Of a stretch of DNA of 64,000 nt, positions 54,782-64,000 are shown piece after piece (positions within the stretch are counted from its first letter, which is position 1; each line of letters opens with the position of its first letter). Source of the DNA: Escherichia coli (GTDB lineage Bacteria > Pseudomonadota > Gammaproteobacteria > Enterobacterales > Enterobacteriaceae); NCBI RefSeq assembly GCF_051903065.1, contig NZ_CP178438.1. One strand, 5' to 3'. Below the pieces are notes generated by a model. That model worked only from the letters and a program-made list of their open reading frames with translations. It was not told where the DNA came from and did not search any database. The translations under genes and the position numbers were made by a program.

Positions 54782-57538
54782 ATGACCAACTACAGCCTGC
54801 GCGCACGCATGATGATTCTGATCCTGGCACCGACCGTCCTTATTGGTTTATTGCTGAGTATCTTTTTCGTCGTGCATCGCTATAACGACTTGCAGCGTCA
54901 ACTGGAAGATGCCGGTGCCAGCATTATTGAGCCGCTTGCAGTTTCTACTGAATATGGCATGAGCCTGCAAAATCGCGAATCTATCGGTCAGTTAATAAGC
55001 GTACTGCATCGTCGCCATTCCGATATTGTTCGCGCGATTTCGGTTTATGATGAAAATAACCGGCTCTTTGTCACCTCCAATTTTCATCTTGATCCCTCAT
55101 CAATGCAGCTCGGCAGCAACGTGCCGTTTCCTCGCCAGCTCACTGTCACTCGTGACGGCGATATTATGATCCTCCGCACGCCGATTATTTCTGAGAGTTA
55201 CTCCCCCGACGAATCGCCCAGTAGCGATGCCAAAAATAGTCAAAATATGCTGGGATATATTGCGCTGGAGCTGGATCTTAAATCGGTTCGCTTGCAGCAA
55301 TATAAAGAGATCTTTATTTCCAGCGTGATGATGCTGTTTTGTATCGGCATTGCGCTTATTTTTGGCTGGCGCTTAATGCGCGATGTAACCGGTCCGATTC
55401 GCAACATGGTGAATACCGTCGACCGCATCCGTCGCGGGCAACTCGACAGCCGGGTGGAAGGATTTATGCTCGGCGAGCTGGATATGCTGAAAAACGGTAT
55501 CAACTCGATGGCAATGTCGCTGGCTGCTTATCACGAAGAGATGCAGCACAATATCGACCAGGCGACGTCCGATCTGCGTGAAACGCTGGAGCAGATGGAA
55601 ATTCAGAACGTTGAGTTGGATCTGGCGAAAAAGCGCGCCCAGGAAGCGGCGCGTATTAAATCCGAGTTTCTGGCAAATATGTCACACGAGCTGCGTACAC
55701 CACTGAATGGTGTTATTGGCTTTACCCGCCTGACGCTGAAAACAGAATTAACACCAACGCAGCGCGATCACCTGAATACGATTGAACGTTCGGCAAATAA
55801 TTTGCTGGCAATTATTAATGATGTTCTCGACTTCTCGAAACTGGAAGCAGGTAAGCTGATTCTGGAAAGTATTCCATTCCCACTACGCAGCACACTGGAT
55901 GAAGTCGTTACTCTGCTGGCACATTCTTCTCACGATAAAGGGTTGGAATTGACGCTCAATATTAAAAGCGACGTGCCTGATAACGTGATCGGCGACCCAC
56001 TGCGATTACAGCAAATCATCACTAACCTGGTGGGGAATGCAATTAAATTCACCGAGAATGGCAACATTGATATTCTGGTAGAAAAACGTGCGCTGAGTAA
56101 TACCAAAGTGCAGATTGAAGTGCAGATTCGGGATACCGGCATTGGTATTCCTGAACGCGATCAATCGCGCTTATTCCAGGCCTTCCGACAGGCTGATGCC
56201 AGTATTTCCCGCCGTCATGGTGGCACCGGGCTGGGGCTGGTGATTACACAAAAACTGGTTAATGAAATGGGCGGCGATATTTCGTTCCATAGCCAGCCGA
56301 ATCGCGGTTCAACTTTCTGGTTCCACATTAATCTCGATCTGAACCCGAACATTATTATTGAAGGGCCATCCACCCAGTGCCTCGCCGGTAAACGCCTGGC
56401 CTATGTCGAACCAAACTCCGCAGCAGCGCAATGCACGCTGGATATTTTAAGTGAAACGCCGCTGGAAGTGGTTTATAGCCCAACGTTCTCCGCGCTGCCT
56501 CCCGCGCATTACGACATGATGTTGTTAGGCATCGCGGTGACCTTCCGCGAGCCGTTAACAATGCAACATGAGCGATTAGCGAAAGCGGTATCGATGACCG
56601 ATTTCCTGATGCTGGCACTTCCTTGCCATGCACAAGTCAATGCTGAAAAACTCAAGCAAGATGGTATCGGCGCGTGTCTGCTGAAACCATTAACACCTAC
56701 GCGCCTGCTGCCTGCCCTGACGGAATTTTGTCATCACAAACAAAACACGCTTTTGCCTGTAACCGATGAAAGTAAGCTGGCAATGACAGTCATGGCGGTT
56801 GATGACAACCCCGCTAACCTGAAACTTATCGGCGCATTGCTGGAAGATATGGTGCAACATGTGGAACTTTGCGATAGCGGGCATCAGGCGGTTGAACGGG
56901 CGAAACAGATGCCGTTCGATTTGATCTTAATGGATATTCAAATGCCTGACATGGATGGCATTCGGGCCTGCGAGCTCATCCACCAGCTCCCCCATCAGCA
57001 ACAAACGCCGGTTATCGCGGTAACGGCGCATGCAATGGCCGGGCAAAAAGAGAAGCTGCTTGGCGCAGGGATGAGCGATTATCTGGCGAAACCGATTGAA
57101 GAAGAGCGATTGCATAATTTGTTGTTGCGCTACAAGCCTGGCAGCGGTATTTCGTCTCGCGTCGTGACGCCCGAAGTCAACGAAATTGTGGTGAACCCGA
57201 ATGCGACCCTCGACTGGCAACTGGCACTACGCCAGGCAGCAGGAAAAACCGATTTAGCGCGCGATATGCTGCAAATGTTACTCGATTTCCTGCCTGAAGT
57301 TCGCAACAAAGTTGAGGAACAGCTGGTTGGAGAAAACCCGGAAGGCCTGGTTGATTTGATTCATAAACTGCATGGCAGTTGCGGCTATAGCGGTGTGCCG
57401 CGTATGAAGAATCTCTGCCAACTGATCGAACAACAGCTACGTAGCGGTACTAAAGAAGAAGATTTGGAGCCGGAGCTGCTGGAACTGTTGGACGAGATGG
57501 ATAATGTCGCGCGCGAAGCCAGCAAAATTCTCGGGTAA
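54782..57538 (+). CDS. barA: Hybrid sensor histidine kinase BarA
   Basis: 918-aa ORF with TM/HAMP, HisKA H-box (SHELRTPLN), HATPase, receiver and HPt domains. Confidence 0.97.
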
Positions 57539-57612
57539 CGGACGTCTTGTCGAGTAGCAATCGGCTTTTTATGACGCTGGTTTCAGATTGGTGACAAAGT
57601 GCCTGTGTTTAT

Positions 57613-57708
57613 GCCGGATGCGGCGTTAACGCCTTATCCGGCCTACAAAACCAATTAAATTCAATAAATTAAAAAGCATGTAGGCCTGATAAGCGTAGCG
57701 CATCAGGC
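57613..57708. repeat. Two REP elements between barA and gudD
   Basis: GCCGGATGCGGCGTTAACGCCTTATCCGGCCTAC (57613-57646) and GTAGGCCTGATAAGCGTAGCGCATCAGGC (57680-57708). Confidence 0.75.
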
Positions 57709-57732
57709 AATTTTGTGTTTGGCATCAGTCTC

Positions 57733-57768
57733 AAACCGGCTCCAGATAGAGCCGGTTTTGGTTTTTTG
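57733..57768 (+). terminator. Intrinsic terminator (hairpin + T-run) downstream of barA, adjacent to gudD 3' end
   Basis: AAACCGGCTCCAGATAGAGCCGGTTTTGGTTTTTTGT. Confidence 0.6.
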
Positions 57769-57770
57769 TC

Positions 57771-59111
57771 TTAACGCACCATGCACGGGCGCTTATTATC
57801 GAACGTCCAGCCAGGAATCAGATACTGCATTCCCATCGCATCGTCACGCGCGCCAAGCCCGTGTTTCTGATACAGCTCATGGGCTTTCATCACTTGATCC
57901 ATATCGATTTCTACACCCAGCCCCGGTTTTTCTGGCACCTGTACCAGCCCGCCTTTGATCTCAAACGGTTCTTTGGTCAGGCGCTGATTGCCTTCCTGCC
58001 AAATCCAGTGCGTATCAATAGCAGTAATTTTACCCGGTGCAGCGGCGGCAACATGGGTAAACATCGCCAGGGAAATATCGAAGTGGTTGTTAGAGTGTGA
58101 ACCCCAGGTCAGGCCAAATTCATGGCACATTTGCGCCACACGTACCGAACCTTGCATCGTCCAGAAATGCGGATCCGCCAGCGGGATATCAACGGATTGT
58201 AACGAGAGCGTATGGCCCATCTGCCGCCAGTCGGTGGCGATCATATTGGTTGCAGTCGGCAGGCCAGTCGCGCGACGGAACTCTGCCATCACTTCACGCC
58301 CGGAGAAACCTTGCTCCGCACCACACGGATCTTCTGCATAAGCCAGCGAACCTTTCAGGTATTTACCAATTTTAATCGCTTCGTTCAGCGACCAGGCACC
58401 GTTAGGATCGAGCGTAATACGCGCCTGCGGGAAGCGTTGCGCCAGTGCCACAATAGACTCGGCCTCTTCTTCCCCGGCCAGTACACCGCCTTTCAGTTTG
58501 AAATCGTTGAAGCCATATTTTTCATACGCCGCTTCCGCCAGGCGCACCACCGCATCCGGCGTCATCGCTTCTTCATGACGCAGGCGATACCAGTCGCATG
58601 AGTCATCCGGCTGGCTTTGATACGGCAGCGGTGTGGCTTTGCGATTACCGACGAAGAACAGATAACCGAGCATTTCGACTTCGCTACGCTGTTGACCATC
58701 GCCCAGCAGCGATGCCACGTTAACCCCCAGATGCTGCCCCAGCAGATCCAGCATTGCCGCTTCTATCCCGGTAACTACATGAATAGTGGTACGCAAATCA
58801 AATGTCTGCAAACCGCGCCCGCCGGCATCACGATCGGCAAAAGTATTACGCACCAGCGTCAGAACGTTTTTGTATTCACCCAGCGTTTTACCCACTACCA
58901 GCGGAATCGCATCTTCCAGCGTTTTACGGATTTTCTCGCCGCCGGGAATTTCCCCTACGCCAGTGTGACCAGAATTATCTTTGATAATCACAATATTACG
59001 CGTGAAGAACGGTGCGTGTGCACCACTCAGATTCATCAGCATACTGTCATGGCCCGCCACCGGGATGACCTTCATTTCAGTAACAACAGGCGTCGTAAAT
59101 TGAGAACTCAT
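57771..59111 (-). CDS. gudD: Glucarate dehydratase
   Basis: Protein [32 protein letters not shown]...; start placed at ATG complement 59109-59111. Confidence 0.95.
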
Positions 59112-59131
59112 ATTTATGTCCTTTTTCAGAA

Positions 59132-60472
59132 TCAATGACGGCCGAAAACGGGACGTTTACGGTCAAAGGTCCAGCCGGGGATCAGGTACTGCATCGGGCC
59201 TGCGTCGTTACGCGCACCGCCAGGCAGACGTTTATAGGCCTCATGTGCCTTTTGTACCTGTTCCCAGTCCAGTTCCACGCCCAGACCGGGCGCATCAGGA
59301 ACGGCAATTTTTCCGTTTTTAATCTCCAGCGGATTTTGGGTCAGGCGACAATCGCCCTCCTGCCAAATCCAGTGGGTATCGATAGCGGTAGGATTACCCG
59401 GTGCCGCCGCGCCCACATGGGTAAACATCGCCAGAGAGATATCGAAATGGTTGTTGGAATGGCAGCCCCAGGTCAGCCCCCAGTCGTCGCAAAGCTGCGC
59501 CACGCGGACTGCACCGGAAAGCGTCCAGAAGTGCGGATCGGCAAGTGGAATATCTACCGCATTGAGCATCACCGCATGGCCCATTTCGCGCCAGTTGGTG
59601 GCGATCATATTAGTCGCGACGGGCAAGCCGGTCGCCCGCCGAAACTCCGCCATCACTTCACGTCCGGAGAAGCCCTGTTCTGCGCCGCATGGATCTTCGG
59701 CATAGGTAAGAACATCATTCAGCCCTTTGCATAAAGAAATGGCTTCATCAAGCAGCCAGGCACCGTTGGGATCAACGGTAATCCGCGCATCCGGGAAGCT
59801 TTTCTTCAATGCACGAACAGTGTCGATTTCTTGCTCGCCAGGTAACACGCCGCCCTTAAGTTTGAAATCTTTAAAGCCATAGCGATCCTGTGAGGCTTCC
59901 GCCAGACGCACAACGGCTTCGCTGTTCATCGCTTTCTGATGTCGCAACTGATACCACTCATGGTTGCCCGGCGTATTTTCCAGATAAGGAAGATCGGTTT
60001 TAGTCCGATCACCGATATAAAACAGATAACCGAGGACGGTGATAGCATCGCGTTGCTTGCCTGGCCCTAACAGTTCGCAGACCGGAACATTCAGCGCCTT
60101 ACCTAGCAGGTCAAGCAAGGCGGCTTCCAGCGCCGCCACGGCGTTAACGCGCAATTCAAAGGTCCAGGCCCCTTTACCGAAGGTATCAAAATCGGCGGCC
60201 TGATTACCTTTATGCACCTGCTGAACCACTTTATTCAGGCGCGCAACTTCCTGGCCCAGCACCATCGGAATAGCTTCGACCAGTGTTTGATAAATCACCT
60301 CTCCGCCCGGCGCTTCACCAATGCCGGTATGCCCGGCATTATCGGTGAGTACCACGATATTGCGGGTGAAGTATGCGTTATGCGCACCACCAATATTGAG
60401 CAACATGCTGTCATGTCCGGCGACCGGAATGACTTTCATATCAGTAATAACAGGACTGGATTGTGTCGTCAT
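59132..60472 (-). CDS. gudX: Glucarate dehydratase-related protein (enolase superfamily paralog)
   Basis: 446-aa [34 protein letters not shown]..., paralogous to gudD. Confidence 0.93.
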
Positions 60473-60473
60473 C

Positions 60474-61826
60474 TTATTGCCCCGCGACAGGTTTCAGCTC
60501 GATACGCTTGATATCGCCCACCAGCACCAGGTAGCTCAGTACCGCGATTAAGGCATGAACACCAACATAAATCAGCGCCCCATTAAAGGAGCCAGTCGTG
60601 CCAACGATATAACCAATTGCGATTGGCGTGACGATGCCAGAAATGTTACCGAACATGTTGAACAGGCCACCGGAAAGACCGCTGATCTCTTTTGGCGCGG
60701 TATCTGCCATTACTGCCCAACCCAGCGCCCCAATGCCCTTACCGAAGAAGGCCAGCGCCATAAAGCCGATGATCATCCACTCAACGTTGACGTAGTTGCA
60801 GAACACCATCACCATCGACAGCAACATGCCCATTACGATCGGTGTTTTACGCGCAATGTTCAGCGATCCCGTGCGGCGCATCAGCCAGTCGGAAATAATC
60901 CCACCCAGCACACCGCCGATAAAACCGCAAACCGCCGGAACGGAAGCCACAAAGCCCGCTTTCAGAATCGACATCCCACGCGCCTGCACCAGATAAACCG
61001 GAAACCAGGTAATGAAAAAGTAAGTCAGGGCGTTGATACAGTACTGACCGATATAAACGCCGATCATCATCCGTGACCCGAGCAGCTGTTTGATCTGCCC
61101 CCACTTCACGCTGAACGGCACTTTAACTTTGGTGTTTTGCTGATCCATATTGATCAGCGCGCCACCCGCGGCGATGTACTCCAGCTCTTTCTGATTTACC
61201 CCCGGATGTTGATTTGGCTCGTGGATGACTTTCAACCAGATAAAGCTGATGACAATCCCCAGACCGCCCATAAAGAAGAAGACGTGTGACCAGCCCACTT
61301 CATGCGTCAGCCAGCCCATAATCGGCGCGAAGATCACCGTTGCGAAGTATTGAGCGGAGTTAAAAATCGACACCGCCGTTCCCCTTTCCTGCGCCGGAAA
61401 CCAGGCCGCAACAATGCGACTGTTGCCGGGGAAAGATGGCGCTTCAGCAAGCCCGACCAGGAAGCGCAGCGTAAACAGGGCAACGATAATGCCGAATCCA
61501 CTAAAGATATCGACGAAGCCTTGCAGCAAGGTAAACATCGACCAGATAAAGATCGACCAGAAGTAGACGCGTTTTGAACCAAAACGATCCAGCAACCAAC
61601 CACCAGGGATCTGCCCGATAACATAAGCCCATGAGAAGGCAGAGAACACATAACCCATTCCCACGGGATCAAGGCCGATATCTTTGGCCATTTCCGAACC
61701 GGCAATAGAAAGCGTAGCGCGGTCGCCGTAGTTGAAGGATGTGACGATAAACAACATCACCACTATCCAGTAACGAGCATTCGTGCGTTTTTCCACACTG
61801 CTCGCAGCCTGACTTAAAGAACTCAT
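60474..61826 (-). CDS. gudP: Glucarate/galactarate MFS transporter
   Basis: 450-aa polytopic ORF. Confidence 0.93.
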
Positions 61827-62260
61827 TGTTGCACTCCTGAAAATTCGCGTTAGCCACGCTCACTCTGGACTGCGACATCGCCAGGAAATCAGAGGTGACG
61901 TAGGGTGTTTTTTGCCGTTTTTATAGGTTGTTCGCCGAATACGGCGCGTGTTTATATCTGGCAATAGCAGTATAAAAAGCGCGCCATAGCGGCTCACCGT
62001 GCAACAACACAACATTAATGCGTTCAATGAGGCCCGATTTTGGCATTAGCCCTGGACGGTGGAATCCACTTCACGGAAATGAAAACAAGAACAAGAAAGG
62101 AAGGGTTAAAACGAAGAAATAAAGAAGAGTATGAAATGGATCGCTTGACTCCAGGCAAACGCCAGTAAAAATCCGCGCTATGAAGCAGTTTTTACTGGCA
62201 TTTGCCTGAAAAGATTCGATTCAGCACCGCTAAAACGACATTTACCGCTCGCTGAACATA

Positions 62261-62710
62261 TCAGGACAACAGCGTGCCCCACTGTTCGACCCACGGATTT
62301 GATTCCGTTTCCGGTTCCGGGTTCTCACTGGCGTCAATCAACAGCATTTCGCCAACCCGCTGAGCGCTCTGTTCCTGCAACAAGGCATCGAACTGTTTGC
62401 CGCCATTGCAGAAATTCACATAACTACTGTCGCCGAGCGCAATCACGCCATAACGCAGATTCGGCTGGAAGCCCAGACTATCTTTGATTCCCTGAAAGAG
62501 CGGCACAATGCTATCAGGAAGGTCGCCCTGCCCGGTCGTGGACGTAACCACCAGAACATACTTATCCTGATAGGGCAGCCAGTCGCTTAATTCAGGATCT
62601 TCAAATACCGTTGCTTTGTGGCCCTGTGCGGTCAGAATTGCTTCTGCTTCTTCCGCCACTAACAGCGAATTTCCGTACATGGTGCCGACAAAAATACCAA
62701 TTTCCGCCAT
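62261..62710 (-). CDS. yqcA: Flavodoxin-like protein YqcA
   Basis: 149-aa [26 protein letters not shown]... Confidence 0.9.
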
Positions 62711-63839: not shown

Positions 63840-63882
63840 AAAGCAACCTCAATAAGAAAAACTGCCGCGAAGGATAGCAGGA

Positions 63883-64000
63883 ATAAAAAAAGGGAGCACT
63901 GTATTCACAGTGCTCCCGGTTCGTTTCGCAGCATTCCAGCTACATTTGTTGCTCCCTGCTCATCCTTGACAACTTTTCCTCTGGCCTTGCGGCCAATCGT
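63883..64000 (-). ncRNA. csrB: 3' portion of the CsrA-sequestering sRNA CsrB (continues beyond window end)
   Basis: Minus strand reads ...CAAGGATGAGCAGGGAGCAACAAATGTAGCTGGAATGCTGCGAAACGAACC followed by terminator GGGAGCACTGTGAATACAGTGCTCCC + T-run; GGA-containing motifs and the expected position next to yqcC. Confidence 0.8.

Follow-up and report, generated by a model that had tools for sequence, protein, structure and literature searches.

Positions 57771 to 60472 of the window, a stretch of 64,000 nucleotides of Escherichia coli DNA (contig NZ_CP178438.1 of assembly GCF_051903065.1), consist of exactly two adjacent minus-strand open reading frames, gudX and gudD, which follow gudP in a series of three successive minus-strand genes in the list of open reading frames (60474-61826, 59132-60472 and 57771-59135; Table 1). 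The genes are transcribed in the order gudP, then gudX, then gudD, with a gap of 1 nt between the gudP stop and the gudX ATG and of 20 nt between the gudX stop and the gudD ATG, and this tight spacing together with the shared orientation suggests that the three genes are co-transcribed. The gudP product scores 538.6 bits against TIGR00893, whose cut-off is 395. In the list of open reading frames gudD begins at a TTG at position 59135; this codon shares nucleotides with the gudX stop and its choice is an artefact of calling frames mechanically. The annotated start is the ATG at 59111, ahead of which there is an AAGGA sequence. Of the protein lengths of 446-454 aa given in the initial annotation, 446 is thus correct for both proteins and 454, which derives from the TTG, is not.

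A stretch of 4.8 kb around the genes matches E. coli chromosomes with gudP/gudX/gudD annotation at 100% identity, which bears out the gene names that had been proposed, and it was found in 5425 of the 5426 complete E. coli genomes. RefSeq gives barA, yqcA and truC as the flanking genes of the locus and names the products 'enolase C-terminal domain-like protein' (gudX) and 'glucarate dehydratase' (gudD). The poorly annotated copy is not the second one: gudX lies upstream and is transcribed first. When positions 57500-62300 were used as a query, the median number of matching places per genome was 20, which implies the presence of multicopy elements within the query. The palindromic units in the intergenic region between barA and gudD are, judging by their consensus, presumably REP elements. 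The hairpin downstream of gudD has a good T-run on the plus strand and a weak one on the minus strand and is probably a bidirectional terminator; a scan of the region for consensus promoters and terminators returned nothing above shuffled expectation. The homologous Salmonella promoter, PgudTYD, is described as being under the control of CdaR (PMC11077982). It is virtually certain that the region is the downstream two-thirds of the gudP-gudX-gudD operon, through which E. coli catabolises D-glucarate, because the locus is a 100% match to annotated chromosomes, GudD corresponds to PDB entry 1EC7, GudX to 4IL0, and both sequences are found in 4GYP.

Table 1. Coordinates of the genes and other features of the gud locus in the window.
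Feature	Position	Strand	Description
gudP	60474..61826	-	glucarate/galactarate/glycerate MFS transporter, 450 aa, operon gene 1; ORF list, RefSeq and TIGR00893
gudX (GlucDRP, formerly ygcY)	59132..60472	-	446 aa, enolase-superfamily paralog of GudD
gudX-gudD spacer	59112..59131	-	20 nt, with AAGGA Shine-Dalgarno for gudD; sequence
gudD, D-glucarate dehydratase	57771..59111	-	446 aa; ORF list and RefSeq
perfect 10-bp GC-rich hairpin	57733..57758		12 nt past the gudD stop, between convergent gudD and barA
REP-type palindromic units (BIME-like cluster)	57610..57693		barA-gudD intergenic; inverted repeats I1 and I2
434-bp non-coding region 5' of gudP	61827..62260	-	without ORF; presumed operon promoter/regulatory region

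The claim that the adjacent genes encode related paralogs is confirmed by BLASTP, which aligns GudX and GudD end to end with 282 identities in 448 positions (63%), 78% positives, 5 gap positions and an E value of 0, far beyond what can be expected by chance. The three shared peptides that had been quoted are all present in both proteins: one of 11 aa starts at residues 15 and 14 of the two proteins, one of 25 aa at residues 261 and 260, and one of 12 aa at residues 343 and 342. Glucarate dehydratase (GlucD)-type members of the enolase superfamily are built of an N-terminal capping domain and a C-terminal modified TIM barrel, and this two-domain architecture (mandelate racemase/GlucD type) is found in the pair together with full-length matches to structures of the GlucD fold. 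GudX matches both PF02746 (MR_MLE_N) and PF13378 (MR_MLE_C); GudD matches PF13378 at 1e-5, its N-terminal domain falling under that threshold. The glucarate-dehydratase equivalog of NCBIfam, TIGR03247, which has a curated whole-protein cut-off of 828.7 bits, is scored by GudD at 898.7 bits and by GudX at 746.2 bits. Glucarate dehydratases efficiently turn D-glucarate or L-idarate into 5-keto-4-deoxy-D-glucarate. GudD is the true D-glucarate/L-idarate dehydratase; the statement that the substrate of GudX is unclear holds, and GudX is on the other side of the equivalog cut-off from GudD.

The gudX-gudD pair is already known: the genes are named, the proteins have been crystallised and their paralogy has been described since 1998. 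GudX of E. coli K-12 (GlucDRP, b2788, formerly YgcY; 4IL0 and chain C of 4GYP), which appears in the PDB under the name 'Glucarate dehydratase-related protein', is the same protein as GudX of the window. The latter differs from 4IL0 by six conservative changes in 446 aa (T2A, E58D, E66D, D142E, L164V and S225R), and the K-12 gene occupies the same genomic place, between gudP and gudD. The window gudX allele belongs to a minority, with an identity of at least 99% in 17 of 5418 records and of about 97% in most. GudD of the window is E. coli GudD/GlucD (1EC7, 1ECQ), being identical to 1EC7 but for Q14K. Both the GudD and the GudX sequences, including two GlucDRP chains, are present in the single entry 4GYP, whose title we take to describe a GlucD/GlucDRP heterotetramer. 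The 'mandelate racemase/muconate lactonizing protein' of Actinobacillus succinogenes (3N6H, 3N6J, 3PFR), which comes from Pasteurellaceae and is about 73% identical, is of the GudX type: it scores 791 bits to GudX versus 625 bits to GudD and carries the 15-residue loop signature. One of its three structures presumably contains bound D-glucarate. The single-copy GlucDs of Pseudomonas, Bacillus and Bradyrhizobium (e.g., that of P. putida, 1BQG) belong to the same family and have the same catalytic residues as GudD; their identity is 73-77% with GudD and no more than 64-65% with GudX, and their genomes have one gene at the locus, without a GudX-type copy.

The alignment of catalytic residues suggested by the initial annotation was made for 16 active-site positions, which in GudD numbering are N27, H32, T103, Y150, K205, K207, D235, N237, E260, N289, D313, H339, N341, D366, H368 and R422. 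The Catalytic Site Atlas lists K205, K207, N237 and H339 for 1ECQ (PMC4922564). N341 is the site mutated in PDB entries 1JCT and 1JDF. The remaining positions are assigned to the active site by what is established for the family and by their place in motifs. All 16 residues are the same in GudX and GudD, which share the two-domain fold along with all catalytic and metal-binding residues, and none of the 16 columns varies among 39 GudX orthologs, among 39 linked GudD orthologs or among 39 single-copy GlucDs; for GudX, in which 48% of the columns are invariant overall, 16 of 16 has a probability of 6e-6. GudX has thus kept the whole catalytic equipment of the superfamily, including the residues that contact the substrate. 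The three Mg ligands, carboxylates or amides at the ends of barrel strands (D235, E260 and N289 of GudD, equivalent to D234, E259 and N288 of GudX), the KxK motif (K205/K207 and K204/K206, respectively) and the His-Asp dyad (H339/D313 and H338/D312) are invariant in every clade.

Nineteen columns set GudX apart from all other GlucDs, and these are concentrated in the 20s loop and in residues 88-114. In the 20s loop the discriminating changes from GudD to GudX are L28I, S29G and P34A, so that GudX has G28 and A33 where GudD has S29 and P34; the GudD mutants P34A (3PWI) and S29G/P34A (3PWG) deposited in the PDB carry exactly the GudX residues at these positions. Within residues 88-114 the changes are R88H, a 2-aa insertion (after residue 89), R94F, Q102W, D105E, a 2-aa deletion (at T108-T109), I110V, H111N and T114A, and GudX accordingly has W103, E106 and N110 where GudD has Q102, D105 and H111. 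Further discriminating changes, T286V, D294N, S322A, S338C and G418P, adjoin catalytic residues. The signature of the GudX clade, which GudX of the window carries, comprises G28, the insertion after residue 89, W103, E106, the 2-aa deletion, N110 and A113; its columns are 85-100% conserved in the clade and their GudX states are absent from the 78 other GlucDs. The most conserved segment of GudX is that of residues 101-120, with an entropy of 0.04 versus 0.17 in GudD, and this conservation, taken together with the 19 fixed columns, implies that the constraint has been changed and not relaxed. In the enolase superfamily it is the capping loops that set substrate specificity.

The gudX gene is present, intact and annotated, in 5407 of the 5426 complete E. 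coli genomes (99.6%). A comparative scan, in which each species was represented by a single genome, yielded 80 loci, among which the gudP-gudX-gudD order recurs in Enterobacterales (Citrobacter, Enterobacter, Pantoea, Erwinia, Dickeya, Pectobacterium, Serratia, Rahnella and Budvicia), Orbaceae and Pasteurellaceae. In 39 of the 44 GudX-type loci gudD is located directly downstream on the same strand, with a spacer of 20 nt in the median (range -8 to 87), and gudX of the window likewise lies after a gudP-type transporter gene and directly before gudD. The five exceptions are one truncated locus, Paludibacterium, Acerihabitans, Pantoea stewartii and Halomonas. In Paludibacterium and Acerihabitans gudD is at most 6 kb away from the GudX-type gene, and in Halomonas a basal GudX-like gene without a nearby gudD has DHDPS-family genes and a TctCBA transporter as its neighbours. 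A single GlucD occupies the locus in Pseudomonas, Bacillus, Paenibacillus, Bradyrhizobium, Variovorax and others; canonical GlucD is thus commonly alone, whereas GudX is almost never far from gudD. No GudX-linked downstream enzyme was co-conserved among the loci compared, where the operon contains only gudP, gudX and gudD, plus garLRK in Dickeya. The order in Dickeya is gudP-gudX-gudD-garL-garR-garK. A Tn-seq study of Dickeya solani names gudX among the fitness genes on galactarate, an effect which is probably due to polarity on garL, since all six genes share one strand.

Genes that join the two paralogs were also encountered. E. coli isolate 38I23CPO002 has a single gene after gudP, in which about 16 first codons are those of gudX and gudD makes up the rest; the crossover falls within the 11-aa motif common to both proteins. 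The hybrid of Pantoea stewartii is of the GudX type up to about residue 260 and of the GudD type beyond it, the crossover being located in the long identical block. Rare open reading frames of 583-690 aa that join gudX and gudD segments are present in the protein database.

The origin of the pair was addressed with a neighbour-joining tree of 122 proteins, which was left unrooted or was midpoint-rooted because a distant outgroup would invite long-branch artefacts. In this tree all 44 GudX-type sequences fall into a single clade, and in 200 bootstrap replicates on a subset of 50 sequences support was 100% for the GudX clade, 93% for the enteric GudD clade and 0% for a grouping of the two. A recent enterobacterial tandem duplication is not supported, given the 0% for this grouping in the unrooted tree. 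GudX is about as far from enteric GudD (distance 0.485) as from all other GlucDs (0.475), whereas enteric GudD and the others are 0.335 apart. Either the split of GudX is ancient or there was a burst of change on the GudX stem; a derived, accelerated origin of GudX is the more parsimonious reading, because GudX is taxonomically restricted and differs from the column states common to GlucDs of several phyla. The 'retained duplication' of the initial annotation therefore stands in so far as the genes are conserved paralogs under purifying selection, with the refinement that their split is old and that GudX is a clade of its own outside enteric GudD.

Against Citrobacter, Pseudocitrobacter and Enterobacter, dN/dS is 0.018-0.047 for gudX and 0.018-0.042 for gudD, and the ratio of the dN of gudX to that of gudD is about 1.2 (mostly 1.0-1.5 across 38 loci). 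The equal dN/dS values imply that GudX is constrained about as tightly as GudD, a known enzyme. The low codon-level identity of the paralogs argues against an origin of the long identical peptides by gene conversion, which is rejected: their nucleotide identity is 65.5%, falling to 44% at third codon positions, only 38% of the codons for the same amino acid are identical in a stretch of 30 codons over the 25-aa identical block, and no identical run is longer than 20 nt, a length barely past expectation (permutation P of about 0.05). The long shared peptides thus reflect constraint at the level of protein and not recent duplication or gene conversion. Mirror-tree partial correlations, which are confounded by GudX and GudD being homologs of the same fold, are 0.65 for GudX and GudD given GudP, 0.48 for GudX and GudP given GudD, and 0.27 for GudD and GudP given GudX, and may weakly suggest co-evolution of GudX with GudD.

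Taken at the level of sequence comparison, these data point to the existence of a selected role of GudX that depends on its active site. The reading that we prefer, and to which we would give slightly less than an even chance, is that GudX, its binding pocket retuned, serves GudD as a selected, non-redundant partner subunit. In favour of it are the equal constraint on the two genes, the invariant active site, the retuned loops, the linkage to gudD, the weak sign of co-evolution and the two kinds of chain in 4GYP. GudX would be made from the same transcript, directly before GudD, and the two proteins would assemble into a mixed GudD/GudX tetramer. The active site of GudX would keep the need to bind metal and an acid sugar, with little stand-alone turnover of glucarate, and its remodelled, clade-specific capping loops (the 20s loop and residues 88-114) would close over the substrate. 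On this reading the mixed tetramer would be what forms in the cell, and it would bring some advantage. In the work of Hubbard and colleagues in 1998, GlucDRP was reportedly strongly impaired in the dehydration of glucarate and idarate and in their epimerisation, while GudD was active. The natural gudX::gudD hybrids that lack gudX imply that the loss of gudX is tolerated at least occasionally.

The invariant catalytic residues exceed what a purely structural partner needs, and an enzyme with a substrate of its own fits them equally well. GudX might accordingly act by itself as the dehydratase (or epimerase) of another acid sugar, which GudP may import, and its product would enter the GarL/GarR/GarK route; although we find this doubtful, several observations agree with it. 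The complete catalytic apparatus is invariant and under strong purifying selection, the clade-specific changes lie in the specificity-setting capping loops, which are highly conserved in the clade, the GlucD equivalog cut-off is missed, and the Halomonas GudX-like gene, alone in a cluster of acid-sugar type, suggests that the GudX type can act alone. An enzyme of this kind is, however, difficult to reconcile with the lack of an extra downstream enzyme conserved with gudX, with the near absence of gudX from places where gudD is not nearby, and with the occurrence of both chains in one crystal entry. It also counts against this possibility that, to our knowledge, structural-genomics screening has led to no published alternative substrate of GudX. 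It is unlikely, in our estimate, that GudX is not a weak GlucD but a specificity-altering component of the glucarate system which, alone or in a mixed tetramer, would by virtue of its remodelled capping loops process something that GudD cannot. The candidates would be some other oxidised sugar diacid that is present in the gut or dehydration of glucarate with the opposite regiochemistry, leading to 2-keto-3-deoxy-D-glucarate. The GarL aldolase accepts this compound as its second substrate, and classical enzyme preparations from E. coli yielded it as a minor product.

Plain redundancy, i.e., GudX being a weak back-up glucarate dehydratase with the activity of GudD, would agree with the 63% identity, the same catalytic residues and the same operon, and conserved catalytic residues by themselves leave it unrefuted. 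An indirect argument against it is offered by Salmonella Typhi, whose ygcY is described as apparently intact: when supplied with a working transporter, it grew on glucarate only after an extended lag, which the authors blame on loss-of-function substitutions in GudD, an explanation that they tested with plasmid-borne gudD (PMC11077982). Redundancy is improbable because of the pattern of selection and the GudX-specific fixed loop signature: a redundant copy is expected to drift or to be lost, yet gudX has the dN/dS of gudD, has 19 fixed clade-specific positions and is conserved across Enterobacterales, Orbaceae and Pasteurellaceae. Similarly improbable is that GudX is a catalytically irrelevant pseudoenzyme, either decaying or a pure scaffold, since its reportedly low activity in the 1998 study and its sporadic natural deletions via gudX::gudD hybrids would be expected in that case, but not the invariance of 16 of 16 active-site columns (P = 6e-6), the dN/dS of 0.02-0.04 or the intact, annotated gudX in 99.6% of complete E. 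coli genomes. The ygcY pseudogenes described in some host-restricted Salmonella serovars, which would also favour a pseudoenzyme, are found where the whole pathway is decaying (PMC3282883, PMC11077982).

Glucarate use matters for the growth of enterobacteria in a gut that is inflamed or has been treated with antibiotics (PMC3877842, PMC11775122), and gudX does not appear in the current description of the gud/gar pathway (PMC11775122). The gud/gar paper published in Nat Commun in 2025 is a study without gudD or gudX knockouts, and a literature search on the function of GlucDRP, or glucarate dehydratase-related protein, found no relevant paper. GudX is a well-sampled paralog that looks catalytically complete and is conserved as strongly as its active neighbour. 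This conservation contrasts with the near inactivity in vitro that Hubbard and colleagues are said to have found in 1998. The comparative results make the long-standing question of the role of GudX more sharply testable, since they name both the loop residues and the hybrids that lack gudX.

In E. coli isolate 38I23CPO002, gudP is followed by one gene only, a natural gudX::gudD hybrid whose N-terminus is of the GudX type ([16 protein letters not shown]) and whose remainder shares 99.8% identity with GudD. The crossover falls within the [11 protein letters not shown] motif common to GudX and GudD, and it has led to the deletion of gudX, a gene whose full version is missing from only ~0.2-0.35% of complete E. 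coli genomes. The hybrid of Pantoea stewartii is a second event, independent of the one in E. coli. It is GudX-type to about residue 260 and GudD-type beyond, with residues 261-360 being 95-97% identical to GudD of Pantoea and Mixta; the crossover occurred inside a 25-aa block that is identical in both paralogs, which left a single gene after gudP.

Rare longer ORFs of 583-690 aa (protein-database entries P0001-P0005, P0009 and P0011) join gudX and gudD segments, part of them in register and part out of register. One of these, P0009, present on 23 contigs, consists of GudX 1-229 fused to GudD 92-446. The joined ORFs may be real rearrangements, or they may be artefacts of assembly or frameshifting.

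The gudX gene of the window (59132-60472) is itself an uncommon allele: in the E. coli genome collection it is matched at >=99% identity by only 17 of the 5418 records, the majority of which are ~97% identical to it, and the locus of one species representative labelled E. coli (L028) is separated from it by a dS of ~0.4. Multicopy elements of the REP/BIME type, palindromes of which lie next to gudD, are the reason why the median E. coli genome has 20 places matched by the 4.8-kb query. At the other side of gudX, the 5' part of CsrB falls beyond the window end.

Coordinates of hybrid, tandem and accompanying features (L, locus)
Feature	Location	Strand	Source	Details
gudX::gudD hybrid gene	L082 2752-4089		E. 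coli isolate 38I23CPO002, NZ_CM148361.1	445 aa
gudX::gudD hybrid gene	L032 6001-7335		Pantoea stewartii subsp. stewartii	
Tandem GlucD gene pair	L061 4584-5951 + 6001-7323		Lucifera butyrica (Firmicute)	
Basal GudX-like gene and neighbours	L041 4866-10522		Halomonas eurihalina	
REP/BIME-type palindromes	57610-57693		window	barA-gudD interval
CsrB small RNA, 3' part	63882-64000	minus	window	Rfam RF00018, 135.7 bits, model positions 238-356

The tandem GlucD pair of Lucifera butyrica is independent of the gudX-gudD pair. Its upstream copy lacks the GudX indels and diverges at some of the GudX loop positions (S29C, Q102H, D105N, I110D and H111N), possibly as a parallel instance of a partner with remodelled loops. 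In Halomonas eurihalina, GudD is absent within 6 kb of the GudX-like gene, which is flanked by a TctCBA tripartite transporter and a DHDPS-family gene, the latter possibly encoding a keto-deoxy-glucarate dehydratase. This context hints that a GudX-type protein can function by itself.
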